Assembly: GCA_905331485.1 (NCBI GenBank)
Contig: CAJNYT010000045.1
Coordinates: forward strand, 4,015 to 39,825
Origin: Rotaria socialis
Lineage: Eukaryota
Direction: 5' to 3'
DNA length: 35,811 nt
Below, piece after piece: positions 3,487 to 35,099 of this stretch. Position 1 is the first letter of the stretch; each line of letters opens with the position of its first letter. The notes below the pieces were generated by a model. It saw only the letters and a list, made by a program, of their open reading frames with translations. It did not search any database and was not told where the DNA came from. Both the position numbers and the translations under genes were made by a program.

Positions 3487-3770
3487 CTTACCCATAACGT
3501 TTTTAGATGCTGAAATCCTGCTTTTGGATTTCTGAGTAAAAATGTTCCGGAATTGGCGGAGTTTGTGGCAAATGCTCTATTCATGATATTTCTACTCGAT
3601 AAATGATCTCCTGGGCTCTCTAGGTCGAAGTGCTAAGGTAGGACAGTTCATGTCGTTCTCTCCTTACACATAACGTTTAGATGCTGAAATCCTGCTTTTG
3701 AATTTTTGAGTAAAAGTGATCCGTAAATGATTGGCTTTGTCGCAGATGCTCTATTAAAGATGGAAACAGA
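3487..3770. repeat. Tandem repeat, 2 units of about 174 bp
   Basis: ...ccttacccataacgtttttagatgctgaaatcctgcttttggatttctgagtaaaaatg... recurs from about 3661 (...ccttacacataacgtttagatgctgaaatcctgcttttgaatttttgagtaaaagtg...). A partial third occurrence of the gatgctgaaatc core lies near 3295. Confidence 0.55.
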
Positions 3771-4940: not shown

Positions 4941-5292
4941 TTTTTGTGTACTCAAAAAGTGAGTACACTACTAAAATAGGTCAGTGTGTCCGTCCGTCCG
5001 TCCGTCCGTTCATTCGATAACTCTTCACAATTACATTCGATTGATTTAAAATTTTGTGCACACAATGGTCTTGTCAATATCTAGGTCGAGTTCGAAGATG
5101 AGAAGGATTCGTCAAGAAATGACTGAGTTATCAAAAAAATGATCACTTTTTATCAGACTATCCCTGAGAGGGAGTACAGGGATTTTTTCAAAAAAAAACT
5201 TTTTTCAGTATCATTCACAACATACATGAATCGACTCAGTTTTTGCAGTACACATAACAATTGGATGCAAATCCGATGTTTCCACATTTATT
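4941..5292 (+). mobile_element. Interspersed repeat family, copy 1; internally deleted derivative of about 350 bp
   Basis: Starts tttttgtgtactcaaaaagtgagtacac (a 9-bp stem hairpin, gtgtactca/tgagtacac) and ends ...gtttccacattt, like the copies at 9500 and 23380. It lacks about 175 bp of internal sequence present in the other two copies. A (GTCC)5 microsatellite sits at about 4988-5010. Confidence 0.6.
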
Positions 5293-9499: not shown

Positions 9500-10030
9500 C
9501 TTTTTGTGTACTCAAAAAGAAAAGAGTACACTATAGAATCGGACAGTGTGTCCGGCCGTCCGTTTATTCGATAACTCTTCACAATTACATTCGATTGAGC
9601 TGAAATTTTGCGCACAGAATTATCTCATCAATATCTAGGTCGAGTTCGAAGATGAGAAGGATCCGTCAAGAAATGGTTGAGTTGTCGAAAAAATTGTCAT
9701 TTTTGATCAGACCATCCCTGAGGAGGGGTACAGAGATTTTTCAAAAAAAACTTTTTTTTCTCAGAATTATCAACAACATATAAAAATCGAGTCAGTTTTT
9801 AACGCTGATGACAAATCTGATATTAGTTTTGAACTAAGCCATAGCTTTCTAACGAAACATCGCCTGAAAAACGTCTCAAAATGCACAAAAACTGCATCCA
9901 GAAATCAAATTGCCTAGTTTCTCATGATAATTTTCGTGTTCAGACATTCTAGAATGACTCATATGTCGCATGCACTTTTTGCAGTACACATAACTCTCGA
10001 ATGAAATCCGAAGTTTCCACATTTTTTTAG
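9500..10030 (+). mobile_element. Interspersed repeat family, copy 2; full length about 530 bp
   Basis: Same termini (tttttgtgtactcaaaaag... / ...ccgaagtttccacattt) and internal sequence as copies 1 and 3. The hairpin stem has diverged (gtgtactcaaaaagaaaagagtacac). Confidence 0.6.
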
Positions 10031-10567: not shown

Positions 10568-13500
10568 ATGGCTGATCCAAAAGTTACCGGTGGTATGAAT
10601 ATTTTAATTCTTTTGCATTACGATTCAATCCTCGTTGTTTTTTTTCTTCTTTGAATTTTAGTTTACCGAGTTCCTCCTTTCTACTATCTGCATGTACTTG
10701 ATCAAAATAAAAATGTAAGCCGACTTGAAGTTGGCCCACTCACATTTGTTAAACAAGATCATGAAAAAGTCCTCGTTGGGCCAGAACGCATGATAATAAT
10801 TCCGTATGTTGAAGTTGTTTTTCTTTCTTTGATTTCATTAAAAATTCTATGCATAACTAATTATCTAGTCCTCGCCATTATTGCGTCGTTGAAAATCCAG
10901 CTGTTCGTGATAAAAATGCGAAAGTTGTTATTGATTCTAATGGTCAAGTTAAGTTGTTACATTCGGATGTTGATATTCGATTTGCTCAAGAGCCATTTCC
11001 ACTCTATCCTGGTGAAATACTCAAACAAACTGTAACACCACTGAAAGTTATTGAGCCTAACTGTGCATTACGCCTTCGTGCGGTTTTGGATTTTATTGAT
11101 GAGAATGATCAACAGATACGTGCTGGAGATGAATTTCTCTTCTGTGGACCAGGTAAAACAGCAAAAAAAATATGCTAAATTTTTTAATGTTAAACATGTT
11201 CGAATAAATTTATTTCTAGGAACTTATCTGCCACGTAAAGAAGTTAGCGTTGAAGAACAAATAAAAGCTGTTATTCTGAAATCAAACGAAGCTGTTCGAT
11301 TACGTGCAAAAAAAGAGATGGTTGACCGCGATGGAATTGCACGCGAAACAGGCGAAGAATGGCTTAATCGTACTATTGGTTCATACTTACCATTAGCTTA
11401 CGAAGAAGTTGTTTCAACAGTTAAAGCCTATGTACTAACTGACAAAGTATGTGTTCTTAGGAATCAGTCGTCTTTTTTCATGATGTATTTATTTCATTGT
11501 CCTTTTTTTTCTTCCAGAAAGCTCTTCATTTACGAGCATTGGGCACATTTATTGATTCATTCAAACATAAACGTCTCAATGGAGAAGAATGGCTTGTATA
11601 TGCCTCTGATGCTGAAACATATATTCCAGATGTTTTTGAAGAGGTAGATATAATTAAATATATTTATTTCATAGATGAAAAATAATGAATAAAATATTTA
11701 GGTTGTTGGTGTTGTAGCAGTAACTGTATTAAATTCTCGTCAATACGCTGTTATTATTGATCCTGTTGGTTCAGATGGTAAACCACAACTTGGAAAGAAA
11801 AAGCTTGTTAAAGTATGCTAAATTAAAATCATATGAATTTTAAATTAAAATCTTTCGATTTTTTCTAAAGGGAGAAACAACATTCTTTCTTCAACCCGGT
11901 GAAAAATTAGCTAAAGGTATTCAGGATGTCTATGTTCTGGAAGACGATGAAGGGCTCATTCTTCGTTGTACTGAATCATTTAAAGAAGATGGAGTAAGTT
12001 AATACTTTGTGTGAAATTTTTATTTATCAATTGTATCCGATTGTTTTTATAGACGGTACTACGTAATCCCGGTGATCGTTGGATGATCCGAGGGCCCAAA
12101 GACTATATTCCAGCTGTAGAATCGGAAGTAGTACTCCGACGTAGAGCTACACCATTAGATGTCAACGAAGGTATTTATGTTCGAGATGTTAAAACTGGTA
12201 AAGTTCGATCAGTCATTGGCACTACATATTTATTGACTGAAAATGAAGAACTTTGGGAAAAAGAATTACCCGCCCAAGTTGAACTACTTCTCAATCAAGA
12301 TGCTCGATGTTTTGATGATAAATCAGCACAAAAAGCAACTATACCACCAAGAGATAAATCGAAAGTAGTTGCCTATCGAGTTCCACACAATGCTTGTGTA
12401 CAAATTTATGACTTCAAATCTAAAAAAGCACGCATTGTTTTTGGCCCTGAACTTGTTATGCTCGGGCCAGATGAGCAATTCACAATATTGAATTTATCCG
12501 GTGAAAAACCCAAAGTACCAAATAAAATTCGAGCTATTTGCCTTTTAATGGGACCCGAATTTTCAAGTGATATTGTAACAATCGAATCAAGTGATCATGC
12601 TCGTCTTTCACTCAGACTTTCATATAACTGGCATTTTGAGGTAAGAATTATAAGAGTTTACAAAGAAAAGAGAATGAAGTCTTTGTTTTTTTTTTACATT
12701 ATTTTAGGTTAATGATTGTAATGATCAAAAAGAAGTTACAAAACTTTTTTCAGTACCAGATTTTATTGGTGATTTCTGTAAAGCTGTAGCAGCTAAAATC
12801 CGTGGTACTGTTGCTGGTATTTCATTCGATGATTTTCATAAGAACTCAGCGAAAATCATTCGAACCTCAGTATTTGGTCTTGATGAAAATAAACATGTGA
12901 AAAAAAGACTAGTATTTCCACAAAATAGTTTGGTTCTGACATCGATTGATATTCAAAGTGTTGAACCAGTAGACCAACGAACACGAGATGCTCTTCAAAA
13001 GAGTGTTCAATTAGCTATTGAAGTAAGATGATAAAATACAATTGGTTGAGCTGTGATGTTTAACTTCAATCTATGTCATTTTTTAGATTACAACAAATTC
13101 ACAAGAAGCCCAAGCGAAGTATGTTTAACAAAAAATGAACTTCAAATTTTTATTTGCTTCGTTTTTCCTATAGACATTTAGCTTCACGCACAGAACAAGA
13201 AGCAAAGGGTCATTTAGAACGACAAAAAATTGCTGATGAAGCAGAAGGTAGAGTTTGATTTTATGTGAAATTGAAATTTTAAACATTTTCATTTTTATAG
13301 CTGAAAAGGAACGACGAAAATTATTAGAACTTCAAGCACTGTCATCTGCTGTTGAAACCACCGGTCAATCACGTGCTGAAGCTCAATCAAGAGCAGAAGC
13401 AGCTAAAATCGAAGGTGCAGCTGCCGTTGATCAAGGTATGTCTCATATTGAACATCTGTATCGATATAGATATTATATGTTGTCTTTTCTGTTTTTCAGC

Positions 13501-13907
13501 TACACTTCGTGCACAAGCGTCAAAGATTGAATCTGATGCTGAACTTATACGTTTAACACAAGCACGTCAACTTGAATTACATTATTCAACATCGACGACT
13601 AATTTAGAAATTGAAAAAGCAAAACGACTAGCCGACATTGAAATTTCCGAATTCAAAGAGCATGTTGCTGCTATCGGTCCAAAAACTATTCAAGCTATTG
13701 CTACTAGCGGACTCGATAATCAAGTAAGATTTTATCTTAATAAGAATTCATGCTACACTTTACTAACTGCTTGATTTTTTTCTCATTATTCAGGTTAAAC
13801 TTCTCCAAGCTCTTGGTATTAAGTCAACTTTGATCACTGACGGACGCAGTCCAATTAATCTTTTCAATACTGCCGTTGATTTAGTTGGCGCACCACAAAG
13901 ACAATAA
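10568..13907 (+). CDS. MVP: Major vault protein, copy 1 (14 exons, 839 aa)
   Basis: Exons: 10568-10592, 10662-10803, 10869-11152, 11220-11446, 11518-11643, 11702-11812, 11871-11993, 12053-12640, 12708-13022, 13087-13118, 13174-13247, 13301-13435, 13500-13723, 13794-13907 (stop TAA). Exon lengths sum to 2520 nt with phases consistent. All junctions are GT-AG. Product [66 protein letters not shown]...[45 protein letters not shown]...[40 protein letters not shown]...[61 protein letters not shown]...[22 protein letters not shown] aligns across its length to MVP (vault repeat domains, shoulder, cap-helix). Confidence 0.9.
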
Positions 13908-15007
13908 AACGATTGAGAACAAATCAATCAAGAAAAAACAAAAACTCATAAAATTTGAATTTCTATGTCCAGTTTTAGACACAAGACATTAGTCAGATTC
14001 TTAAAATAAAAACACATGTTTTTTTGTAAGAAGGACAGAACATTGTTTTATACTTATTATTTTTAATATATGTATGTGACCTCAGAATATAGCTTTTTCC
14101 ATTCGAAAAATAAAATAATTTAATAAAATTTGGTATATATATATATATGTTAATTTTATTGAAGTAATTGAGAAAGTTGAGTATGATACATAAAAAAAAT
14201 GATATTCTACCTGAAATGAAATCATTTTCAACGCTAACACAAACGCAAAGGCTCGATTGATTCTAGGGAAATATGAGTTTGGGAAATGCGAATGAATCAG
14301 ATTCGATTTAATTTAGTATTCACCAAAACATTTAGCTTCTATTCAAATGATATTTTAAATGTACTAAACAAAACAAAACACATTTGGGAAGAGTAAATCT
14401 TAAGAGGGCGATTTCTCAAGTGTGACTAAGCCAATGCAACGAACATTCTAACAAAAGATAAGCTCCGACGAGCCTCCGAAAATTGTCCCCCAACTACTAA
14501 TAACTTTGCTGAGTGGATCTTTATTTCAAGTGAAGTATTTGTAAATTAATGGAAGTATGAGATTTTCATCTATGTTTTCTGCCGACGACTCAACAAATCA
14601 CGAAAGTCGCTCTTACACTCTTAGGTTGTTTTTTCGAACTGAAATACGAAATTTCAATTTAAAATAAATTCACGTATCGCAATGAATTTTCGAGGTATTC
14701 ACAAGCCATAAAATAAAAACATCGAAATTGTCAAGGTGAAGTAAAGAAATGCATCGCCATGGGGTGCCTATTTTTGACGCACCTTTTAATACATTTGAAA
14801 AGAGCTAGGAAGTAGATAATAAATAGGCAGTGAAAAAATTGTTTCTTATGATGATCATCACAGTTTATTATTCATACATGAACTACACAATAAGTAGAGT
14901 GCACTTATATAGTTAAATTATTAATACGAAAACAAGAAGGGACGGACAAAAATTATTGTTTTTCGTCAACAAAAAGCAAGTTTTATCTAATAATTTTCTT
15001 CAATGCA

Positions 15008-18000
15008 TTAATTAGGTGCTCCACCCGCATTACTAATTGTATTTGCATTTAAACCACCTAAAAGTCCTTGTCCAAAACCCATTAGATTGATAGGTGAATG
15101 GCCATCAGTAACCAACATGGACTGAAGACCGAGGGCTTGCAAAAGTTTAACTTGTGTATCTGGACCTGAAGTTGCAATGGCTTGTATTGTTGATGCACCG
15201 ATTGATTCAATTTGTAATTTGAATTTGTCGGTTTCAATACGTGACATTTCAGCTTTTTTAGTAATTTCTAATTCATTCTGTTCACGTAAATAGTTAATTT
15301 CAGCTTCTCGTGCCAATTTTAAACGTGATATTTCAGCTTCGGCTTCAATTCGCGCAGCGTCAGCCCTGAGACGAGCTAAACAAATGAAAATTCATTTGTT
15401 CAATTGCATTGGAGAAATAAAATAAAATATCTATACCTTGTTCAACAGACGCTCGTCCTTCAATGAGAGCAGATTCGGCTCGACTTTGTGCTTCGGCTTT
15501 AGCTTGACCTGTGACTTCAACAGCCGATGATTCAGCTTGTAACAGGAGAAGTTGTTTTCGAACCTCTTCAGCTTCAGCATCATCTTTAATACGTTGACGT
15601 TCTAGTAAACCTTTTGCTTCTTGTTCTCGACGCGAAGCTTCATGCTTAGCAGCAGCTTCTTGTGAATTTGTTGTAATCTAAAATGCAGACATACACGAAA
15701 ATTAATCACCACAATTCAATCGATTGTCTTTTATCTTACTTCAATGGCTAATTGAACACTCTTCTGAAGAGCATCTCGCGTTCGTTGATCAACTGGTTCA
15801 ACACTTTGAATATCAATCGATGTAATGACAAGATTGTTTTGTGGAAAAATAAAGTTATCTCGTATTTTTTGATTTGCATCAAGACCAAATACAGACGTAC
15901 GAATAATTTGAGCTGAATTCTTATGAAAATCATCAAATTGTGTACCAGCAACAGCACCACGAACACGTGAAGCTATAGCTTTAGCTGCATCACCAACAAA
16001 ATCTGGTACAGAAAAAAGTTTGGATGCTTCTTTGTCGTCATCAATATCTGATATTTCAAAATGCCAATTGTATGAAAGTTGAAGTGAAAGACGAGCATGA
16101 TCAGCTGTTTCAATAACAATCACATCAGTAAAAAAATCTGGTCCAAGAAGTAAGCAAAGTGTTTGAATTTGATTTGGTTTTTTTGGTACACTGCCACTCA
16201 ATGAAAGTAATGTAAAATGCTCATCGGGTCCAAGCATAACAAGTTCAGGGCCAAATATAATACGTGCTTTCTTAGCTTTATAATCATAAATTTGTACAGC
16301 GGCATTGTGTGGTACACGATAGGTAACTAGTTTTGATTTGTCACGTTTGGCAGCATTTACGTTTGAACTTGTTGCTGTTGTTGCTGCTTGTTGTTGAGAT
16401 TGATTTTTATCTGATGTTTGACTTCGTGTGAGAACATTTCGTTCACTTAAAGCATCACGAGACAATAGTTCTTCAACTTTCTTAGGTAATTCTTTTTGCC
16501 ATAATTCTTCATCTTGTGTTAACATATAAGTTTCACCAATGACGGCGCGGACACAACCAGTTTTGATATCACGAACATAGATACCTTCATTGGCATCCAA
16601 TGGCAAAGCTTTTCGACGTGTAACAACTTCAACTTGTGTTGGAGGAATATATTCACTAAAATTCACAAGAATAATATTAATTTAGACCTTTCATAGAGAC
16701 ATTAAATATCTTACGTTGGACCACGAATCATCCAACGATCACCGGGATTTCGATTAACATTAGCTTGCGTATCTTTAAATGCTTCAATACATTTTAGAAT
16801 AACACCTTCATCTTCACCTAAGATAAACACATCTTGAATACCATTTTGAAGTTTTTCACCGGGTTGAAGAAAGAATGATTTTTCACCGACAACAAGTTTC
16901 TACGAAAGAAAACAAAATCAACATAATTAATCGCTCTGATTTCATTGAGATAAAAAACTTGCTTTTTTCCCTAATTGTGGTTTTCCATCAGCAACTGGAT
17001 CGATTATAACACAATATTGACGTGATGTCAATGTTACTACATTAACAACAGAAACTAATTGTTCATAGACACTAAGAATGTGTGTTTCAGTGTCAGCAAG
17101 TGTTACAAGCCATTCTTCACCATTCATACGTTCTTTACCGAATTCATCGGTAAAAGTTTTTAATGCACAAAGATGAAGAGCTTTTTTATCGGTTAATACA
17201 TAAGCATTTTCTACTGAAACCACAGTTTCCTAAAATTAACAAGATTTGAATTTCGCATACCGACGAGATTTTGCACTTACATATGCAAGTGGTAAATATG
17301 CACCGGTCTTTTTAATTAACCACTCTTCACCAGTAACACGCCGTTGGCCTGTACGATCAACGATTTCTTTTTTTGCGCAAAGCCTTATAGCTTGATTAGA
17401 CGAGATAACTGTAGCACGAATTTGTTCTTCAACGCTAACTTCTTTACGAGGAATATAAGTAGCTGGCCCTTCAAATAACCATTCATCTCCAGCCCGACGT
17501 TGTTCGCCTGCTGTTTCATCTTGAAAATCTAGGACAGCTTTTAAGCGTAACGCTGAATTAGCAGGAACAACTTTTAATGGAGTAACAGGCTTTAAAATAT
17601 AAAAAGTAGTTTTGTTTTATTCTCAATAGAAAATGTTTAGTGTTTTTTTTTATACTTGACGAAGAATTTCACCGGGATAGAGAGGAAAAGGTGATTGATC
17701 AGGTTGTGAAAGACGAATTTCCAAGTCAGCATGAACAAGTTTCGCTTGTCCATTGCTATCGAAAATAACTGCGCCAGCATCATTGCGTACTACAGGTGAT
17801 TCAATAACACAGTAATGACGGGGCCTAAAAACACATCCAAATTTTCACTTTCTTTCAGCGTCTTTTCTTAGATTAACAATTATAAACGTACGGTACTGTA
17901 ATCATTTTTTCTGGTCCGATGGTGACTGTTTCATTGTCTTGTTTAATAAATGTTTTGGGACCAATTTCAAGTCTCGTAACATTTGTATTTTGATCCAAAA

Positions 18001-18079
18001 CATGAATATAATAATAAGGAGGAATTCGATAAAGTGGACCAGAATCACTTTTCTTATCCATAGTTGTTGCTTTACTCAT
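15008..18079 (-). CDS. MVP: Major vault protein, copy 2 (8 exons, 881 aa), convergent with copy 1
   Basis: Exons (minus strand, 5-prime to 3-prime): 18079-17892, 17824-17656, 17589-17281, 17229-16963, 16899-16715, 16655-15740, 15680-15437, 15375-15008 (stop TAA). Lengths sum to 2646 nt, phase-consistent. Product [78 protein letters not shown]...[58 protein letters not shown]...[24 protein letters not shown] is about 65-70% identical to copy 1. A 28-aa low-complexity insertion ([28 protein letters not shown]) falls in the variable loop. Intron 4 uses a GC donor (aaaaaa|GCAAGT...tttcgtag|aaactt). An upstream in-frame TTG-initiated extension shown in the ORF track is not a real start. Confidence 0.88.
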
Positions 18080-18919: not shown

Positions 18920-19100
18920 TTTTGCTGTATATTGACAATGTTACTTGATCGTAGATACAAAATTGATCGTCGCTGTCGACTGCATCACATCCTAAGAACA
19001 TCAATAGAAATCTTGTCTTCGATGGAATCACATTCCCAATGGAAAGATGTGCATGCAGATGTTTATTACTTCCGCACACTCAAGACGACGAATATCTTTC
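18920..19100 (-). pseudogene. Truncated third copy of the 3-prime end of the pentapeptide-repeat gene (duplication remnant)
   Basis: acttgatcgtagatacaaaattgatcgtcgctgtcgactgcatcacatcc...atcaatagaaatcttgtcttcgatggaatcac is homologous to 20540-20650 (gene A tail) and 24305-24420 (gene B tail). No upstream remainder of the gene is present. Confidence 0.4.
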
Positions 19101-20715
19101 GAACTCGCTATCAACTTTTATGTTTATCTCAACTATCAACTCTGTCTCTCAATTACATTTGAGCTTGAAAAGAGGGTATCAGTGTGAATTGTTCTTATGT
19201 TGTTTGTCGTTGTAATATAACAATGGCGAGAAAATATAGTTTTCAAAAACTTCATATCGTTGCAAGAACGAGTAGTAGCACTTAAAAACAAGTCAAAGAA
19301 ACAAGATAGACGAATAGTATTTGGCTTGAGTATATGACTTCGTGATTTAAAATACAATAGAAAATATTATGCAAACAGACCGAGATTTCATCATATTTTT
19401 ATCGGGTTATTAAAGAAAAAGGTCATATAATGTCACTTTTCTTAGCTGACACAAGATAGTACCTCTTAGTTGTCTGCTTGCCAATTCTCTGTTGAGTTGA
19501 TTACTCTTTATCGTTAGCCTATGTGAAAATAAATCTATAATCATATGTCTATGCACGTTATAATACACGTGTGAATAAATTGACATTGTTTTCAGAACAA
19601 TGCCCCAATTTTCTACTTGGTGTATCAATGTGACTACCTGATTACTATTGGGTTATATTCTTCGAAGCTACATCACCAAGAGAACAAACAGCAATGACCT
19701 CTCTACCGATGCCAATAGATGATTCTCCGAGATTGGTTTACATTTTCAGTATGGTTTCTATTATTATCTTCCTACTGATTATCGTCTGCTATATCTCAAT
19801 CGTTAGAGAGTGCTTAGAAGCAACACCTAGAAGAACACTGCCGACACCTCGATACTTTCAAATAGATGAGTATCCACAATTGGTCAACTCCTATGCTGAG
19901 CAACCCCTCGGTCAACCCGTGGAATTCTAACGCCATCAGATATCACCCATAATCGATCTCAACCAATATCAACAATGAATTTCGAAAACTTAAACTATAC
20001 CGATAATATTATTCAGTTTATTGGTTGACAACTTTATTGAAATAGTTTATTTCTTGGCAAGGATATATGTTGCTGATAAATGGGTGCCTAATATTGCTCT
20101 TTATACGAATGCTCCAATAACCGACTTCTGTCTTATGTTGTTCCACTTTTTGGTTAACTAGTGCACTAGTCTCTCCTTAATATGAAGAAGCTAAAAGCAG
20201 GCTCTTTAATTAAATGTTTCTTTCCTGATTGCTTTTAATCATAATCCAAACCTTATGCGATTGCAACCTATTTTCAGAGTGGTACACATCAAATAATTCG
20301 ATTGAGCATTTAATGCGTGAGAATGGCATGTATATTCTCCGGTTAATGTCAACATTTTCTCAAAAATTGCCAGGATGAGTTTACATATTTCGATAAAGAC
20401 AACTTCTTTCTGCAGATACAATTCAATTGTTATTGTTTTCAAAAATATGTTATACATAAAATTGACATATTCGTGTCGTAATGCGTATTTACCAAAAAAA
20501 ATCCTTTATCATCTTTACGAGATCTTTCTAAAAACTGATAATGTTATTTGATCAAAGAGACAAAATTGGTCGTTGCTACCAACTGTATTACATCCCAGCG
20601 ATACTGCTATAAATCTTGTCGTTGGTGGGATCATATTAACAAGTGAATGTTGATGGAATGACGATGTCAAATTTTTCATATGAACTTAAAATACAAGCAC
20701 AATAACAATAGTGAA

Positions 20716-22057
20716 TCATGAAAGCCCTACCGGCAACGACTTACTAAATACTGAACTTCCAAAACCAAATGAATTTTTATTTTGTGAAAAATGTACTGTC
20801 ATCGTTAACGAATCTTTGTCATTTGGATTTTTCAATCCGAACCATCCAAATAAATTGAACATAGCTAGTTTTAAATCGATCAAACGAGAGAAGTTTTGAA
20901 CGGACAAAAGTTGATAGTAGGTCATGTCTTTATCTATTTTGAAAAAGCAATCGTCTTCGACTTTAGACATATTCACTGGTACGTTTGTTTGAAAATGAAT
21001 AATATTTAGTGGTTCATTAGTGATGACACCATTCCAATGTGGCGTTACATTGAGATGACACTACAAAAAAACGAAATGAAAAACACTCCACAACGGGATA
21101 TATGACAAAACTAACTTCTGGCTCTGCTCGACCATGCATAAGCAAATTCTGTGAATCGATAATACTGAACGTGCCATCCGGTAAGCGAGTATTGAGCAAA
21201 ATTACTGGCTTCAAGCCGAGAAAGGGTGGTGGATTCAATAAGGAATTTCCAATAACACTTTGATACAAATCAACATTTGTGAAATCTACATTCTGATAAA
21301 CTCCATCACCAATGAATGATTGACGAAGATCAGCGCTCGTGAACTTTGCTTCATACATTTGGTTGTCACGAAATTTTGCCTTATTCAAATTGGCATTCTG
21401 AAAATTCGCAAGCGCAAGATTGTTCAACAGAAAGTTAGAACCAACCATTGACGCACTCTCAAACACTGCATATGTGAGAGTACAACCATCGAATATGACA
21501 TTTTCTGCGATGACTCCAGGCAAATAAAGAAAGGAAAGATCACAGACTTGTGTCGAAGATTGCACAAGCTTCATTCCACTAAAATCCGCCCCACGTATAT
21601 CAATTTTCGGTGTGATATCGTGTCGAATCAGACGACTTTCATACAAAAAAAGAAACACATCACGCTTACGGGTAGGGTCAAGATTTCTTAGGACCGTTAA
21701 TGTTTGAACGCGAATTTGCAGAAGAGACTTGTTAATATTTTGTTCAAAATTTTCATCTAAAAGAAGATCTCTCATATCATCCATATACTCTTTGAAGAGA
21801 ATCCTTCGATTCGTTTCATCGGCTTGTCTTTGATCTTGGTCACGTGTCGCCCTAGCCGCAGCATCTTGTTGTAACGTGAAGACAATCGTAAACACTCCAA
21901 AAACAATAGTTGGCAATGCAGCAAGTGTAAGCTTGAATATATTCATACATTTAATTGGCTTTGATTTCTTACGAGTCACCACATCAGATGACGTTTGTGC
22001 CGCAGATGATGACACGATTGAATTTCCTCGTGTGAAATCAAATGAACTGTTATCCAT
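20716..22057 (-). CDS. Pentapeptide-repeat single-pass membrane protein, tandem copy A (2 exons, 428 aa; C-terminal tail lost to stop)
   Basis: Exon 1 22057-21116, exon 2 21060-20716. The 55-bp intron has donor gaa|GTTAGT and acceptor tttttttgtag|tgtcat. The reading frame continues across the intron, and the exon 2 frame is conserved codon-for-codon with copy B. Product: about 45-aa N-terminal tail, hydrophobic helix LTLAALPTIVFGVFTIVFTL, a juxtamembrane charged segment, then about 24 consecutive pentapeptide repeats (ADFSG MKLVQ ... ANFQN ANLNK AKFRD NQMYE AKFTS ADLRQ ... VDFTN VDLYQ), then CHLNVTPHW...IIHFQTNVPVNMSKVEDDCFFKIDKD...FGLKNPNDKDSL...SKSLPVGLS*. The downstream 195 bp (20520-20715) still aligns in frame with copy B's C-terminal extension but carries TGA and TAA codons. 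Confidence 0.75.
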
Positions 22058-23379
22058 AGTTTGTTGAAAGATGAGAGCACGAAAAATTTCACGTATTATA
22101 ATAAATTCAAGGTTGATAGTATCTAAAATCTATATTGTGTTGTGATTCGTTCGAACATACAAAAAAAGTAAAAAGAACCAGTTATTTATACCTGTGTGGG
22201 AAGCTTTATATTAACATAATAGGCATTCGCAGCAAATTGAGTTTGACGGATGTCTATGATATCCTCTGAATCTGACCTCATCGTCAATTGTAACGTTTTC
22301 TATCACGAACTATATATTCCGAATGACGTACCTTTCACAATAGTTTTTCATAGAGTAGTCATTGTATCGATAGATAAAACAAAACAATCTCTCGACTGAT
22401 CTAACAGCTTTGTAGAATGAGAAAAAACATCTTCTATCATTGGCCAAAAGCGATCTTTTGAAAAATGTCAATTTATTAGCATAATTCACAAGATCAGTGT
22501 TGAGTGGCTAATGACATTTCTATTGAAAGTAAATGAATTCAATGTGTTAGTCAAAATATCAAGATATATTGTAGAAAAAAAAGTAGAACATCATCTAATA
22601 CATTGGATTAACATTTTTCTTTGTCATAAAAGTCGAAATTTCAATTGCATCTGATTAAAACTACCTGCTGTGACAATACGAAACCAGGCTTTGTGCTCTT
22701 CTGATGAGTAGTATGGATACGATGAAATATTTTCTGATTTCGACACAAACATTCTGCTAACAGTTACTTTTCGGACATCTGAGAATCCTTGGATTATTTG
22801 ATAATCTTCTCTCATGAACTAGGGAAAAGTCTACTGATGCCAATGCAATAGTAGCGATTGTTACAGTCATATTATTAGTCAACCCAATATTCTTTGCAAT
22901 TATGTCTACTTTTCGTATCTTGAAATTCAACAAATGGGTAGTGCACAGCAATTATTCAAATTGTATATTCTTCGAATAGCTGTTGGCAGTTAGAGACCTG
23001 CAGGTTGTAGATAAGTGTTCTGTTCTGCCCTAGTAGTACAGGGTAGATTGTAGGGTATAACTATTTTAATCTGCCAACCTGTAATTAACCTAATGTATTC
23101 CGTATTGTTGGTGTCTCGTCAGACCTATTCAGTAGGAAATGTTTGGAAGCCTGTAGCCTAGCTCACCATTGATTGAGATCGGTCTCGGTCACGGTGCATA
23201 AAACCAGATGTGCCGCTACTATATACTTTATACATCTATCTACTAAGTTTTCCACATAGTTTAGTTTCTTAGTTGACCACTTTATTAAGATGATTTATTT
23301 CTGGACGAAAAAGTCCTTTGCTCATAAATGGGTACCTAATATTGCTATTTTTAGTCTTCTCCTATAACTGACGGCTGCC

Positions 23380-23913
23380 TTTTTGTGTACTCAAAAAGTG
23401 AGTACACTCTAGAATCGGCCAGTGTGTACATCCGGCCGGCCGGTCGTAGGCACGATAACTTTCGAAAGGAGAGTCAGATCGTGATAAAATTTTCCATACA
23501 GTTCAATCGCATGAATATCTCGACCGAGTTCGAAGATGAGAAGGATCCTTCAAGAAATGGTTGAGTTATCGAAAAAATTGACATTTTTGACCATACCATC
23601 CCTGAGGAGAGGTACAGGGATTCTTTTCAAAAAACAAATTTTTCCCAGAATTATTCACAACATATACAAATCGACTCAGTTTTTAACGCTGATTTCGAAT
23701 CTGATATTAGTTTTGAACTAAATCGTAGCTTTCTAACGAAACATCGCCTGAAAGCCGTCTCAAAATGCACAAAAACTGCATCCAGAAATCAAATTGTCTA
23801 GTTTCTCATGATAAATTTGGTGTTCAGACATTTATTCTAGAATGACTCATATGTCTCATGCACTTTTTGCAGTACACATAACTCTCGGATGAACTCCGAA
23901 GTTTCCACATTTA
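23380..23913 (+). mobile_element. Interspersed repeat family, copy 3 (about 534 bp); an insertion present in duplication unit 2 only
   Basis: The flanks cctataactgacggctgcc | ... | ttctgttctactttttgtccagccgatgcac are contiguous in the paralogous unit 1 sequence (ccaataaccgacttctgtc ttatgttgttccactttttggttaactagtgcac at about 20110-20160). The element is therefore a post-duplication insertion. Same termini as copies 1 and 2. Confidence 0.7.
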
Positions 23914-24279
23914 TTCTGTTCTACTTTTTGTCCAGCCGATGCACTATTTTTTCATTGTTATCAAAAGACTAAACATATGTTTTTTAATGAAATATTTCTT
24001 TCATAATTGCTTTTAATCATTAACCAAAGCTTAGATGGTTATAATTTTTATCGTGGATTAGCTTTTATATGTGTACTTGGAGAATAGCCGCCAGCCTATT
24101 CGTTCATCAATGTGAAAATTTTGTTTTCAACAATTGTGAGTAAGATCATATGACGTTTCGAGTTCGTAGCTACATTTCACAGAACTATAATATCTATGAA
24201 GGCATCGTCGTGTTGAGAACACACAGTAATTTTTTTATTTTTTTCAAAAACATTGTATACATAAGATTCATTGTAATAT

Positions 24280-25818
24280 CTACAAGGTCTTTCTATAAAT
24301 TGATAATTTCACTTGATCGAATAGACAAAATTGATCGTTACTACTAGACACAATACACGCCAGCAATAGCACTATAAATTTTGTCTTCTCCGGAATGATA
24401 TTGACAAGAGAAAGTCGCTGGAACGATGTCAAATTCTTTATAACCACTTGAAATACAAGCAGAATAAATACAGTGAATAGTGAAAACTCGGTCGATAATG
24501 ACTTACTAAATATTGAACTTGCAACATCAATTGAATTTCTGTTCGGTGAAAAATGTATAGTCGCCAATAAGGAATCCATGTCATTTGGATTTTTCAATCC
24601 AAACCATGCTGATAAATTGAACATGGCTAATTTAAGATCAATCATATGAGAGAAGTTTTGAACAGATATGTGTTGGTAACTGGTCAGATCTTTATCAATT
24701 ATAAAGAAACAGGCGTCTCCGACTTGAGACACGTTCGCTGGTACATTTGCTTGAAAATGAATAATTTTCATTGGGTCATTGTTCTTTACATCTCTCCAAT
24801 GTGACGTGAAATTGAGATGGCACTAGAAGAAGCGCAATGAAAAATATTCTAAAACGCAATATTCTGTAAAACTAACTTCCGTCTCAGCTTGATCACTCAA
24901 AATCAAATTTTGCGAATTGATATTACTGAACGAGCCGTTCGGTATACGAGTATTCATCAAAATATTTGGCTTAAAGCCGAGATACACTATTGGATTCAAT
25001 AATTCATCTCCAATGATACATTGATATAGATCTACATTAGTTAAATCCATATTTTGAACAACGCCACCATGAATGATTGATTGAACGAGATAGGCACCGG
25101 TAAACTGCGTTTGATAAAGCTGATCGTCGTGAAATTGAGCTTTAGTAAGATTGGTATTTTGAAAATTAGCACGTAATAGATCACTCAAAATAAATTAAGA
25201 GCCAGCCATCGATGAATTCTCAAATACGGCGTCTATGAGAGTACAACCATCGAATGTGGTATTTTCGAGGTACACTCCGGGTAAATGAAGAAAGGGAAAT
25301 TCGCATGACTGTGTTGATGTTTGTATGAGTTTCATTCCACTAAAATCTGCCCCACGTATATCAATATTTGGTGTGTGATCGTGTCGAATTAAACGGCTTT
25401 CATACAGAAAAATAAAAACATCCCGTTTACGAGCCCGATCAAGATACATCAAAACGGTCAATGTTTGTACTCGAATCTGTAATAGAGACTTGTTGATATT
25501 TTGTTCGAAATTTTCATCTAAAAGAAGATCTCTCATATCATCCATATACTCTTTGAAGAGAATCCTTCGATTCGTTTCATCGGCTTGTCTTTGATCTTGG
25601 TCACGTGTCGCCCTAGCCGCAGCATCTTGTTGTAACGTGAAGACAATCGTAAACACTCCAAAAACAATAGTTGGCAATGCAGCAAGTGCAAGCTTGAATA
25701 TATTCATACATTTAATTGACTTTGTTTTCTTACGAGTCACCACATCAGATGACGTTTGTCCCACAGATGATGACACGATTGAATGTTCTCGTTTGAAATC
25801 AATTGCATTTTTGCCCAT
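24280..25818 (-). pseudogene. Pentapeptide-repeat single-pass membrane protein, tandem copy B; in-frame TAA inside the repeat domain (probable pseudogene or needs sequence verification)
   Basis: Exon 1 25818-24877 (942 nt, same length as copy A exon 1), 54-bp intron (gaa|GTTAGT ... ttcttctag|tgccat), exon 2 24822-24280. TAA at 25195-25197 replaces the AAC codon of copy A (MAGS* versus MVGSN) in the same frame with no frameshift. Exon 2 extends about 65 codons beyond copy A's stop and encodes a second hydrophobic segment FSLFTVFILLVFQVVI. The N-terminal 60-residue TM region is nucleotide-identical to copy A. Confidence 0.7.
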
Positions 25819-26689
25819 GATTCTTTGAATGATAAAGACACTAAAAAAATCTGAGAAATCAAAATCAAAATCGATATTATCTAAAAGCAATATTGCAGAA
25901 AAACTTCTCTGAAAAATTAATTAACACTTTCTATCTAAAAATATGCATTCGTCTAGCTAAATCGCACCTCTCTATTTAGTATTTCAATATCATGGGAGTC
26001 GTTCTGACAACTTCTTAGATAGACTTCTTGTAATGTGAAGAAAACGCCGAATAATAACAATTAAAATTATCGTATCACCGATGATCTCATGAAAAATGTT
26101 AATATAGTGGCATTATTAATAAGGTGAATATTGACGTGCTAGTCGTACTTGTATTCAAAGCAAATAAACTCGATATATCAGTGGCGATATCAAGTTAAAA
26201 CCTACAAAACAGTATCCCAATATCATTGAATACATTAGATTAGCATTTTTCTTTTTCATAATAGTCGCGATTTCAATTGTGTTAGATTGAAACTACTAGT
26301 TATCAAAATACAAAGGTACACTTAGTGTTTTTCGTATGAATCATATTTGCATTATGAAACATTCTGTGACGTCGACATTAATATTCTACCCACAGTTGAT
26401 TTCCATACATCTGACAATCGCTAGATTGTTTGATACTGTTTTCTAATAAAAAAAACTTTATTAGATAGACTATGTGGTCAAGTAATATAGAATGACTATC
26501 ACATGTTCGATAATTACCTATCTCAAGTTAAAATATACTCATTTAAATTCATGAGGTTGTCCAGCGAGTAAGATATATGTATGGCTATCACTGTCGAATC
26601 CGCCCGCATCCACTCCCCGTTTATCATTACTCTATCACCGATCGAAACAAAGTGATCAATCATGCAACACTGTAATTTGAAAAAACGTC

Positions 26690-31494: not shown

Positions 31495-31895
31495 TATGAT
31501 GCGTTCGGAGAATATTCACGGAAACTCGATTAAGTGCTAGGGAACCAAACTTAGCAGATATAATAGATATAGAGATATACAGCATATAGGGAGGAGGGGG
31601 GGGGTCTAGGAGATACAGGATATATATTTTTTTCTCTTTCATCTCTTAATTTTTTAAAATTATAACTCAACATAAATAAAATTTTCCGTCACAGATATTA
31701 CTGATATCAATATTTATTTGTTGAGCCTTGGTCATTGCTTATCAATCTCCTATAACTTCTATAACTCCTGTAACCCCTAGATCTCCTAGGCCCCCTATAT
31801 GCTGTATATCTCCCTATCTATTATATCTGCTAGGTTTGGTTCCCTAGCACTTAATCGAGTTTCCGGGGATATTCTCGGAACGCATCTAATCAATT
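31495..31895. repeat. MITE-like inverted repeat: two arms of about 118 bp (about 90% identical) around a 170-bp AT-rich spacer
   Basis: Left arm gcgttcggagaatattcacggaaactcgattaagtgctagggaaccaaacttagcagatataatagatatagagatatacagcatatagggaggagggggggggtctaggag. Its reverse complement recurs at about 31783-31895 (ctcctaggccccctatatgctgtatatctccctatctattatatctgctaggtttggttccctagcacttaatcgagtttccggggatattctcggaacgc). Contains a G10 run at the inner end of the left arm. Confidence 0.6.
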
Positions 31896-33245: not shown

Positions 33246-34099
33246 GCAAAACCTGTTGCGGTATTTACAACATGGGTAATCTTAGATGTTAATAGTTGAC
33301 AATGAGCAACTAAACTACAATTATCTCCGACAAAAAAATAGAATTTTTTTTTATCATTAGAATGTTTAGAAATTTTCAATACATATTTTGAATACTTATG
33401 ATAAATTTGATTAAAATTAAATTCTCTATCAGTCATAATTCGACTGTTATTTTCGTTATCTTCATCATCGTTTTTATTTGTTCGATTAATTTTATTTGAT
33501 AATTTTTTATTCATACGCTTAATAACATTATTTGACATTAAAAGTATCATAATACTTGTACATATGTCAAGTAAACCTGTTAATTCTTGATCTAGCCGAG
33601 AATCTTCATTAATATTTATTAAGAGCCATTCCGCGTAATCCACAACCTATTCATGTAGAAGTTGCTCAATCGATGGAAACCGATTTGACTCCTTTATGTA
33701 TAGGTTCGTAGGGGAAAGAGTTTGATGAATTTCTGCGCAAGCCGTTTCAAAAAATATTGTTTCGTTCCTGAGAGCACCCTCCGAAAAAGGTGACATTTTT
33801 TGAGATTTTTTGTAACATTTATATCTATTCATGAGTACATCTGTTTTGGTTGAAGTTTATATTATAAGTCGACCTAAGTTTTATCTATTTTTCTTAAAAG
33901 AAACAAACTCAAATAGGTGAGTCATCTGTGAGTTGGTTGGGGCGACAAAGTCGAGGAAAATTTCTACTGTTTTTACGATATTGTGCATGTATATAATGGT
34001 TGAACAGTTTCTATCAGAAAGCTGAAATTTTGTCCACTGGGAGATCTTATCAAGTACTAACTCTGATAAAATATTCAGCTCTTCAACTAGCTCCTATGG

Positions 34100-34875
34100 C
34101 TCATGGGATCCTCGTCAAAAAAGAAACCTTGATCAAAATCACCATTTTCAAGGAGAGATGTTTATAGCAAAATCAGACCTGCAGAAGTTCTGTCATTATG
34201 ATTTCAAACTGCATACATAGTACTACAAAGTTCTGCAAAAATTAGGGTGGGACAAACTATATTACCGTTCAGAGCCTTATCTGAAGTTGAGTAAAAGAGC
34301 TGTATATTTTTAGCAAAATTCTTTCAGATTTGTTCCGAAATAAATAACAACATGATATAATAGAAAGAAACTTACTATCTACTTTAGGTGAGCACACAAT
34401 CCTCTACTCATTGAGGTATAAAGATCCTTTGAAAGTGAGAAAAAAAAAATTTCGACAAAAAACCGTGGAGGGGAGCGCAACATTAGTTTCATTATCGAAA
34501 TCCCTGTATTTCCCTCCATGGTTTTTATCGAAATATTTCTTTCTTACTTTCAAAGGATCTTTATGCCTCAATGAGTAGAGGATTGTGTGCTCATATATAG
34601 TAGATAGTAAGTTCCTTTCTATTATGCAGAATTGTCATTTATTTGTGAACAATTATAAAATAGTTTAGCTTACAATATACCGCTTTTTATCTCATTTTCA
34701 GATAAGGCTGTGCTGAGCAATATGCATGGTCCCATCCCAATTTTTGCAGGACTTTGTAGTACCATGTGTACAGTTTGAAACCACCAAGACAGAACTTATA
34801 CAGACCTGATTTTGCTATAAATATCTCTCCCCAAAAATGGTCATTTTCATGAAAATCGCATTTTTGACGAGAATC
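34100..34875. repeat. Long hairpin palindrome of about 780 bp (foldback-like)
   Basis: Inner arms 34354-34445 and 34530-34620 are essentially perfect reverse complements (gaaagaaacttactatctactttaggtgagcacacaatcctctactcattgaggtataaagatcctttgaaagtgag versus ctttcaaaggatctttatgcctcaatgagtagaggattgtgtgctcatatatagtagatagtaagttcctttc). Outer arms 34100-34330 and 34690-34875 are about 80% complementary (for example aatttttgcagaactttgtagtactatgtatgcagtttgaaat versus aatttttgcaggactttgtagtaccatgtgtacagtttgaaacc). The centre, near 34490, is also a small palindrome (aaaaccgtggagggga / tccctccatggtttt). Confidence 0.6.
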
Positions 34876-35099
34876 ACTTTCGTCTTAGAGGTTAGCTACG
34901 GAGCTAAAATTTCTATCGGAGTAAGTACTTATCAAGATCTGATTGCAGCCTAAATTTCAGTTCTCTTATATGATTCGTTCAAGCCGATAGGTACACGCAC
35001 AAAATCTCGAAAAGTGAGGAATTTTTCATGAATTCTGTTATTCCAGTCAACTGTTTCACGATTTAAGCAGTTCGCATGTCGCGAATACCACTTCAATTT

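Follow-up and report, generated by a model that had tools for sequence, protein, structure and literature searches.

A convergent pair of major vault protein genes in Rotaria socialis differs mainly through old, differential intron loss

In a 35,811-nucleotide stretch of the genome of the bdelloid rotifer Rotaria socialis (the window; GenBank assembly GCA_905331485.1, contig CAJNYT010000045.1, positions 4,015 to 39,825 of the forward strand), two genes for the major vault protein (MVP), here named MVP1 and MVP2, stand tail-to-tail and carry 13 and 7 introns. We found that this difference in structure is old and is mainly one of differential loss. The best explanation of the locus as a whole, to which we assign a probability of about 85%, is an ancient tail-to-tail duplication followed by differential retention of ancestral introns and by old gains. 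Placing the introns against outgroup genes assigned 8 of the 20 to ancestral metazoan positions and the remainder to gains on defined branches. Bdelloids hold MVP1 and MVP2 as a conserved, linked pair, together with a further paralog, compared with a single MVP gene in each non-rotifer outgroup examined.

Two intact MVP genes with largely non-matching introns

MVP1 occupies the plus strand at 10568-13907 and encodes 839 amino acids in 14 exons (10568-10592, 10662-10803, 10869-11152, 11220-11446, 11518-11643, 11702-11812, 11871-11993, 12053-12640, 12708-13022, 13087-13118, 13174-13247, 13301-13435, 13500-13723 and 13794-13907), separated by 13 GT-AG introns of 53-71 nt. MVP2 runs on the minus strand from 18079 to 15008 and encodes 880 amino acids in 8 exons (18079-17892, 17824-17656, 17589-17281, 17229-16963, 16899-16715, 16655-15740, 15677-15437 and 15375-15008), with 7 introns that measure 51-67 nt. 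A spacer of 1.1 kb (13908..15007), read directly from the sequence, separates the two stop codons. An earlier reading of the same DNA from its letters alone (the sequence-only reading) had proposed a convergent pair about 1.1 kb apart, an 839-residue MVP1 and 13 versus 7 introns, all of which our models reproduced; it had put MVP2 at 881 residues, where both the model and the annotated protein have 880.

The gene models were built by hand and then independently recovered by a custom protein-guided spliced aligner that used proteins from other loci as guides; in validation, the aligner recovered exactly the annotated proteins of 6 other MVP genes. Both open reading frames (ORFs) are intact, and neither copy carries a disabling lesion, as had been proposed. 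The 880-residue MVP2 is letter-for-letter the annotated Rotaria socialis protein CAM2716300.1. In R. socialis assemblies 99.5-99.8% identical to the window over 23 kb, genes of 880 and 839 amino acids with equal spans are annotated, and an 839-residue gene of equal span is annotated in R. magnacalcarata also. Two MVP paralogs are already present in public annotation, then; the exact 839-residue MVP1 sequence was not found in the protein collection searched.

Comparison with a close relative supports the exon borders. Against the R. magnacalcarata ortholog, 22 of 22 exon lengths are equal, exons are 97% and introns about 90% identical, and the differences in intron length are mostly not multiples of 3. 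Retention of any MVP1 or MVP2 intron produces a stop codon or a frameshift. A 2.75-kb JGI contig (L013) contains an unbroken 841-codon MVP1-type ORF whose matches to the window break at the modelled exon borders; it appears transcript-like, behaving as a spliced transcript of a related bdelloid would.

Aligned to each other, the two proteins are 66% identical (552/836), within the 65-70% first estimated. Exactly three intron positions are shared, each with equal phase: P|PRHYC (phase 2), after QLAIE (phase 0) and VDQ/VEQ (phase 1). The sequence-only reading had named only these three, and every copy-specific intron that it listed is present, leaving its picture of largely non-matching exon structures intact. 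Over about 2.6 kb of coding DNA, three exact coincidences of position and phase greatly exceed what chance would give; two further near pairs of introns do not. When all introns were compared with each other and with the window, those at shared or nearby sites showed no sequence similarity, the only matches being of low complexity and 8-14 nt long.

The spacer at 13908..15007 contains AATAAA-like signals about 100-140 nt past each stop codon. It is kept only in comparison with the close relative R. magnacalcarata, and not with a second R. socialis locus or Adineta vaga. A search for vault RNA or other non-coding RNA gave no Rfam match, either across the whole window at gathering thresholds or in the spacer at E<=1.

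Age and phylogeny of the pair

The tail-to-tail pair recurs in R. magnacalcarata, at the second R. socialis locus, in A. vaga and in the early-branching Didymodactylos carnosus. The second R. socialis locus is about 74% identical to the window in DNA and is probably an ohnologous region. Flanking genes are conserved, with a TPT-type transporter upstream of MVP1 and a Sad1_UNC gene beyond MVP2. In a neighbour-joining tree with 200 bootstraps, an MVP1 clade that includes D. carnosus received 100% support, as did a clade of MVP2 and a third type, MVP3, that includes D. carnosus MVP2; rotifer MVPs were monophyletic at 100% and bdelloid MVPs at 74%. On the strength of these clades and of the pair in D. 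carnosus, we place the duplication within the rotifer lineage and before crown Bdelloidea. A horizontal origin of one copy was rejected, since both copies group inside Rotifera.

The window, R. magnacalcarata and A. vaga agree in every intron position, and the second R. socialis locus matches them except for one extra MVP2 intron at column 582 of the alignment described below. The whole intron pattern is therefore older than the divergence of Rotaria and Adineta. Measured against R. magnacalcarata, the second R. socialis locus and A. vaga, Ka/Ks is 0.06-0.12 for MVP1 and 0.09-0.13 for MVP2; both copies are under purifying selection and functional.

Early bdelloid assemblies reportedly showed palindromic arrangements of homologous regions, which would favour reading the pair as an assembly artefact or collapsed palindrome, or one copy as decaying or non-functional. 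We give that reading next to no chance. ORFs are intact at every modelled locus (two in R. socialis and those of R. magnacalcarata, A. vaga and D. carnosus), and the Ka/Ks range across the Rotaria and Adineta comparisons is low, at 0.06-0.13. Mirroring is limited to the MVP genes, with different genes in the flanks, the arrangement recurs across several independent assemblies, and MVP1 and MVP2 diverge by 34% in amino acids versus about 14% between the two R. socialis loci. On these grounds, both a pseudogene and an assembly palindrome were rejected.

The bdelloid MVP family is larger than the pair in the window. MVP3, a third Rotaria type of 858 amino acids with 9 introns, sits at an unlinked locus (L010 8001-11116 in R. 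magnacalcarata) and splits from the MVP2 lineage after the divergence of D. carnosus. A further MVP2-like clade contains an 893-residue protein of R. magnacalcarata and an 884-residue protein of A. steineri.

Ancestral and derived introns

To polarise the differences, we placed the introns of 15 genes on one alignment, defining ancestral positions by Lottia (12 introns), Lingula (13) and Nematostella (16); positions are given below as alignment columns, with MVP1 introns on the plus strand and MVP2 introns on the minus strand. Seven of the 13 MVP1 introns are at ancestral metazoan positions. Introns 3 (11153..11219; column 164, phase 1), 4 (11447..11517; column 240, phase 0, after VLTDK) and 10 (13119..13173; column 720, phase 2) occur in all three outgroups, and column 164 is also occupied in D. 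carnosus MVP2. Intron 5 (11644..11701; column 282, phase 0, after PDVFEE) is found in Lottia and Nematostella, and introns 6 (11813..11870; column 319, phase 0, after QLGKKKLVK) and 13 (13724..13793; column 865, phase 0) are found in Lingula and Nematostella. Intron 7 (11994..12052; column 365, phase 0, after KEDG) is common to Lottia and Lingula, the Nematostella intron lying one alignment column off in a gapped stretch. MVP2 retains one ancestral intron only, its intron 2 (17590..17655; column 122, phase 0, after GEILRQ), which is also found in Lottia, Lingula and D. carnosus MVP1 and was lost from MVP1 of Rotaria and Adineta.

The three positions shared by MVP1 and MVP2 are columns 64, 710 and 790. 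Column 64 (phase 2; MVP1 intron 2, 10804..10868; MVP2 intron 1, 17825..17891) is common to MVP1, MVP2 and MVP3 of Rotaria and Adineta and is occupied in no outgroup and no D. carnosus gene; the MVP1 and MVP2 introns at this site have no sequence similarity. Column 710 (phase 0, after QLAIE; MVP1 intron 9, 13023..13086; MVP2 intron 6, 15678..15739) is bdelloid-wide, present in all MVP1, MVP2 and MVP3 genes examined, including both D. carnosus genes, and missing from the outgroups. Column 790 (phase 1, VDQ-g; MVP1 intron 12, 13436..13499; MVP2 intron 7, 15376..15436) is likewise found in MVP3 and is missing from the D. carnosus genes and the outgroups.

The remaining introns are private or derived. 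MVP1 intron 1 (10593..10661; column 17, phase 1) is restricted to MVP1 of Rotaria and Adineta, and we infer a gain here; the column is empty in D. carnosus MVP1, in all MVP2 and MVP3 genes, and in Brachionus, Lottia, Lingula and Nematostella. Intron 8 (12641..12707; column 587, phase 0, after SYNWHFE) is private to MVP1 and lies 10 nt downstream of an ancestral position in a W codon, and intron 11 (13248..13300; column 745, phase 1) occurs in the MVP1 clade only, D. carnosus included. MVP2 has three derived introns found only in MVP2 and MVP3: intron 3 (17230..17280; column 225, phase 0, after LPLAY), which is absent from D. carnosus MVP2 and all outgroups, intron 4 (16900..16962; column 315, phase 0, after QLGKK) and intron 5 (16656..16714; column 380, phase 2, RGP|T). 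Intron 4 is of the GC-AG type with a GCAAGT donor, a feature that had escaped the earlier note; the window and R. magnacalcarata share the GC donor, whereas the second R. socialis locus and A. vaga have GT.

D. carnosus MVP2 orders these events. It lacks columns 240, 282, 319, 365, 720 and 865, it also lacks columns 225, 315 and 380, and it still has column 164. In the MVP2 lineage, therefore, the losses came first and the three new introns later. Mapping positions and phases against MVP orthologues from other taxa, the course that the sequence-only reading had pointed to, thus polarised the differences between the copies as gain or loss.

A probable history of duplication, loss and gain

These data are best explained by the following history. 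Within the rotifer lineage, and earlier than the common ancestor of living bdelloids, a single MVP gene was duplicated locally and in inverted orientation, which left the copies tail-to-tail; purifying selection has maintained both since then. The gene that was duplicated was intron-rich, holding ancestral metazoan introns and at least one rotifer-specific intron, the one after QLAIE. In MVP1, seven of the ancestral introns persist and about three were added. The lineage of MVP2 lost at least six ancestral introns, comprising a contiguous block of four (columns 240-365) and two 3'-proximal ones; later, before the MVP3 split and the divergence of Rotaria and Adineta, it lost column 164 and acquired three new introns.

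Block-wise loss in MVP2 may have proceeded by recombination with partly spliced cDNA, a mechanism that fits the contiguous-block pattern. As in intron loss mediated by reverse transcription, the contiguous four and the two 3'-proximal introns are missing, the exons are precisely joined and the frame is kept. Unlike a retrocopy, MVP2 adjoins its paralog, keeps one ancestral and three shared introns and has gained new ones. Of the retrocopy-like intron loss first suggested for this copy, then, the loss stands, with at least six ancestral introns gone and four of them contiguous, and the retrocopy does not: a processed retrocopy was rejected on the basis of the 7 introns, the ancestral one and the three shared with MVP1 among them, and of the 1.1-kb distance from MVP1.

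Introner-like (transposon-derived) gain was looked for, and no similarity was found of the introns to each other or to the window beyond low-complexity matches of 8-14 nt; the gains being old, any such signal could have decayed.

Several observations weigh against this history of ancient duplication and differential retention. Transcript-like support is limited to the JGI contig L013, which comes from a related bdelloid and is of the MVP1 type. With 74% neighbour-joining bootstrap for bdelloid monophyly, the duplication could predate the split between bdelloids and monogononts. The cDNA-mediated mechanism is a proposal drawn from the pattern of losses. Finally, the shared positions are unevenly distributed: columns 64 and 790 are occupied in MVP1 and MVP2 alike in Rotaria and Adineta but in neither D. 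carnosus gene, and columns 582 (phase 2) and 611 (phase 1) are, among the bdelloid genes examined, common to the two D. carnosus genes only. Given this reversed pattern, simple inheritance needs parallel losses.

Shared positions and gene conversion

The reversed distribution of columns 64 and 790 and of columns 582 (phase 2) and 611 is what gene conversion between the adjacent inverted paralogs could produce, and in the D. carnosus genes (L004 10001-13811 and 16663-20057) the pattern of shared positions looks concerted. Gene conversion is reportedly frequent in bdelloid genomes, which adds to the case, as do a few short tracts in which paralogs are at least as identical as orthologs (columns 480-520 in A. 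vaga, and the N- and C-termini in D. carnosus). We nevertheless consider it unlikely that conversion supplied the shared positions, or the two absent from D. carnosus. Nucleotide identity between the paralogs near columns 64 and 790 is not above the gene average (63-68%), the introns at shared sites are mutually dissimilar, and column 710, present in every bdelloid MVP examined, does not call for conversion at all.

A scan of sliding-window synonymous and nucleotide identity in four species found orthologs closer than paralogs almost everywhere, the exceptions being few, short and weak, so that the sequences of today show no clear sign of conversion. Across columns 680-720, identity is about 90% whichever genes are compared. 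Just upstream of the bdelloid-wide intron, the stretch at 12915-13029 in MVP1 and 15733-15847 in MVP2 reaches about 90% nucleotide identity between the paralogs versus about 67% elsewhere in the gene, and the orthologs in Rotaria and Adineta conserve it to the same degree. This conservation suggests either constraint that extends to synonymous sites or old gene conversion.

Near pairs of introns

Two pairs of introns lie close to each other without coinciding, and the sequence-only reading had seen in them a sign of intron sliding or of independent gain. Of the spacings that it gave, 15 codons between VLTDK| and LPLAY| was confirmed, and 3 codons between QLGKKKLVK| and QLGKK| measured 4. Distances as short as 12 nt and 45 nt are at chance level (permutation, P = 0.34-0.40; 10 MVP1-private introns in about 2.6 kb of coding DNA). 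Between the paired sites, the two copies have homologous, conserved codons (for example, KLVK/KLVV), which makes a simple boundary shift impossible. By comparison with the outgroups, QLGKKKLVK| and VLTDK| are ancestral metazoan sites, and QLGKK| and LPLAY| are derived in MVP2 and MVP3. Each near pair is an ancestral intron kept in MVP1 beside an unrelated new intron in MVP2, and sliding is not supported for them.

A more elaborate version of sliding would have the LPLAY| and QLGKK| introns be the ancestral VLTDK| and QLGKKKLVK| introns, moved by 45 and 12 nt through, as a suggested route, reverse splicing into a nearby transcript site followed by reverse transcription and recombination. For each of columns 225, 315 and 380, an ancestral position now missing from MVP2 lies 4-15 codons away, and intron positions do form a genuine micro-cluster at LSYN|WHFE, where four fall within 14 nt across lineages. 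We regard such a transposition as highly improbable all the same. Random placement yields distances of this kind and the intervening codons are conserved, as described above; no intron resembles another in sequence; and D. carnosus MVP2, which has neither the old nor the new positions, indicates that loss preceded gain.

In the micro-cluster itself, the shifts are of 1-10 nt. The LSYNWHFE motif (12626-12640 in MVP1 and 16070-16090 in MVP2; columns 582-587) is invariant. Its four intron positions fall in the N codon in phase 1 (MVP2 of the second R. socialis locus, and MVP3), in the N codon in phase 2 (both D. carnosus genes), in the W codon in phase 2 (Lottia, Lingula and Nematostella) and after E in phase 0 (MVP1); MVP2 of the window has no intron here. 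The cluster may reflect real micro-sliding or a hotspot of intron gain.

Class-specific intron sets in other bdelloid genes

The closest precedent is bdelloid alpha-tubulin, with five ancient paralog classes whose 6-8 introns each, 42-70 nt long, are distributed among 17 sites; every class keeps its intron pattern from species to species, and the homologs in monogononts have almost no introns or none at all (Eyres et al. 2012, PMC3464624). The MVP classes likewise differ in their introns, with 13, 7 and 9 in MVP1, MVP2 and MVP3 and lengths of 51-71 nt, and the monogonont side is again intron-poor: the only intron of Brachionus MVP is in a position of its own, and the genes of a monogonont-like contig have 0-4. 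Unlike those of alpha-tubulin, the MVP classes are physically adjacent and convergent, and their differences could be polarised by outgroups, mostly as retention versus loss of ancestral metazoan introns. The locus is a new, well-polarised example of the class-specific intron sets known from bdelloids, and alone it opens no long-standing question.

The rotifer MVP genes sampled have about 20 non-ancestral positions in total. Intron turnover in rotifer MVP genes is high, yet in line with that of known bdelloid paralogs. The view that so much turnover between adjacent paralogs is unusual did not survive these comparisons: the pair is ancient, its positions are conserved by class and alpha-tubulin provides a precedent (PMC3464624).

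Neighbouring paralogs with discordant introns, far younger than the pair in the window, are also found in the monogonont-like contig, a JGI metagenome contig of 25% GC (L015, 2950-18650) with a direct tandem MVP array. The array comprises a truncated copy, an intronless 847-residue gene (m2) and two four-intron genes of about 850 residues; one of the introns of the four-intron genes is at an ancestral position, and the model of the second keeps one in-frame stop. Intronless m2 stands beside the four-intron gene m3, with 90% amino-acid identity between them, and illustrates complete intron loss in one of two neighbours.

Protein architecture and vault function

Both proteins match Pfam Vault, Vault_2, Vault_3 and Vault_4 well above gathering scores, and PF11978 (MVP_shoulder) with E = 2.5e-48 for MVP1 and 1.4e-51 for MVP2. 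Residues 8-835 of MVP1 align to residues 6-851 of the solved rat and human MVP, the cap-helix region included. Canonical metazoan MVP (rat/human, PDB 4V60) has this domain architecture too and can be aligned from end to end; identity to mollusc, brachiopod and cnidarian MVPs is 63-71%. MVP2 has two extra parts, an S/T/Q-rich low-complexity loop and a Gly-rich C-terminal tail. In contrast to the canonical situation, bdelloids carry MVP1, MVP2 and MVP3, each at more than one locus, and the Lottia, Lingula and Nematostella loci examined hold one MVP gene each.

One genome thus holds at least two diverged, intact MVP paralogs under selection (66% identity; Ka/Ks 0.06-0.13). Judging from their sequences, both proteins most likely assemble into vault shells, mixed or separate. 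Heteromeric or specialised vaults, the consequence first drawn from the two isoforms, are a plausible reading with precedents. In Trypanosoma brucei, three MVP paralogs share one vault shell (PMC12547018). Like T. brucei and Dictyostelium, which has two MVPs, the rotifers have several diverged MVP paralogs per genome. The duplication is independent, however, the rotifer paralogs grouping inside Rotifera; at 66% identity they are less diverged than the kinetoplastid ones as described.

The pair could be of interest for the study of vault function in view of A. vaga, where MVP genes are induced by radiation and rehydration: five are over-expressed after irradiation or rehydration (PMC10809525), listed under FUN_ identifiers that are not mapped to this locus. 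A bolder proposal would be that bdelloids have kept a fixed set of MVP isoforms (MVP1, MVP2 and, later, MVP3) from a time before their radiation, that this set forms obligately heteromeric or specialised vaults connected with the responses to desiccation and radiation and, separately, that rotifer MVP genes are a hotspot of intron gain and micro-sliding. We hold this to be doubtful; if it were true, rotifer MVP genes would offer a tractable natural series for the creation of spliceosomal introns in animals.

Other features of the window

A repeat of about 525 bp lies at 9505-10024, ahead of MVP1 and about 540 bp from its start codon. Other copies are found at 23380-23915 and 4941-5244 and also elsewhere (L001 5955-6484). 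The repeat has a hairpin at its beginning (GTGTACTC...GAGTACAC) and T-runs on either side. The orthologous R. magnacalcarata site (L006) is empty, which identifies the repeat as a mobile element insertion that differs between the sister species.

Two diverged, tandem pentapeptide-repeat genes (Pfam PF13599/PF00805) lie on the minus strand, with ORFs at 21017-22057 and 25195-25890. They sit in an 8-kb segment (about 19100-26000 of the window) between MVP2 and the Sad1_UNC gene; at the second R. socialis locus and in A. vaga this segment is missing, and Sad1_UNC is the next gene after MVP2. Since proteins with pentapeptide repeats are typical of bacteria, the gene may have been horizontally acquired and then duplicated.

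Two inverted repeats lie farther downstream. One, at 34000-34982, is imperfect, with 452-nt arms that are 76% complementary and a 79-nt spacer; the other, at 31498-31886, is shorter, with 94-nt arms that are 94% complementary and a 201-nt spacer. Both could be hairpin elements or the ends of transposons. Toward the 5' end of the window, direct repeats form two pairs (2712-2947 and 3502-3761), with units of about 80-86 nt set 155-174 nt apart and 83-86% identical; they may represent the repeated exon or domain structure of an unannotated gene.

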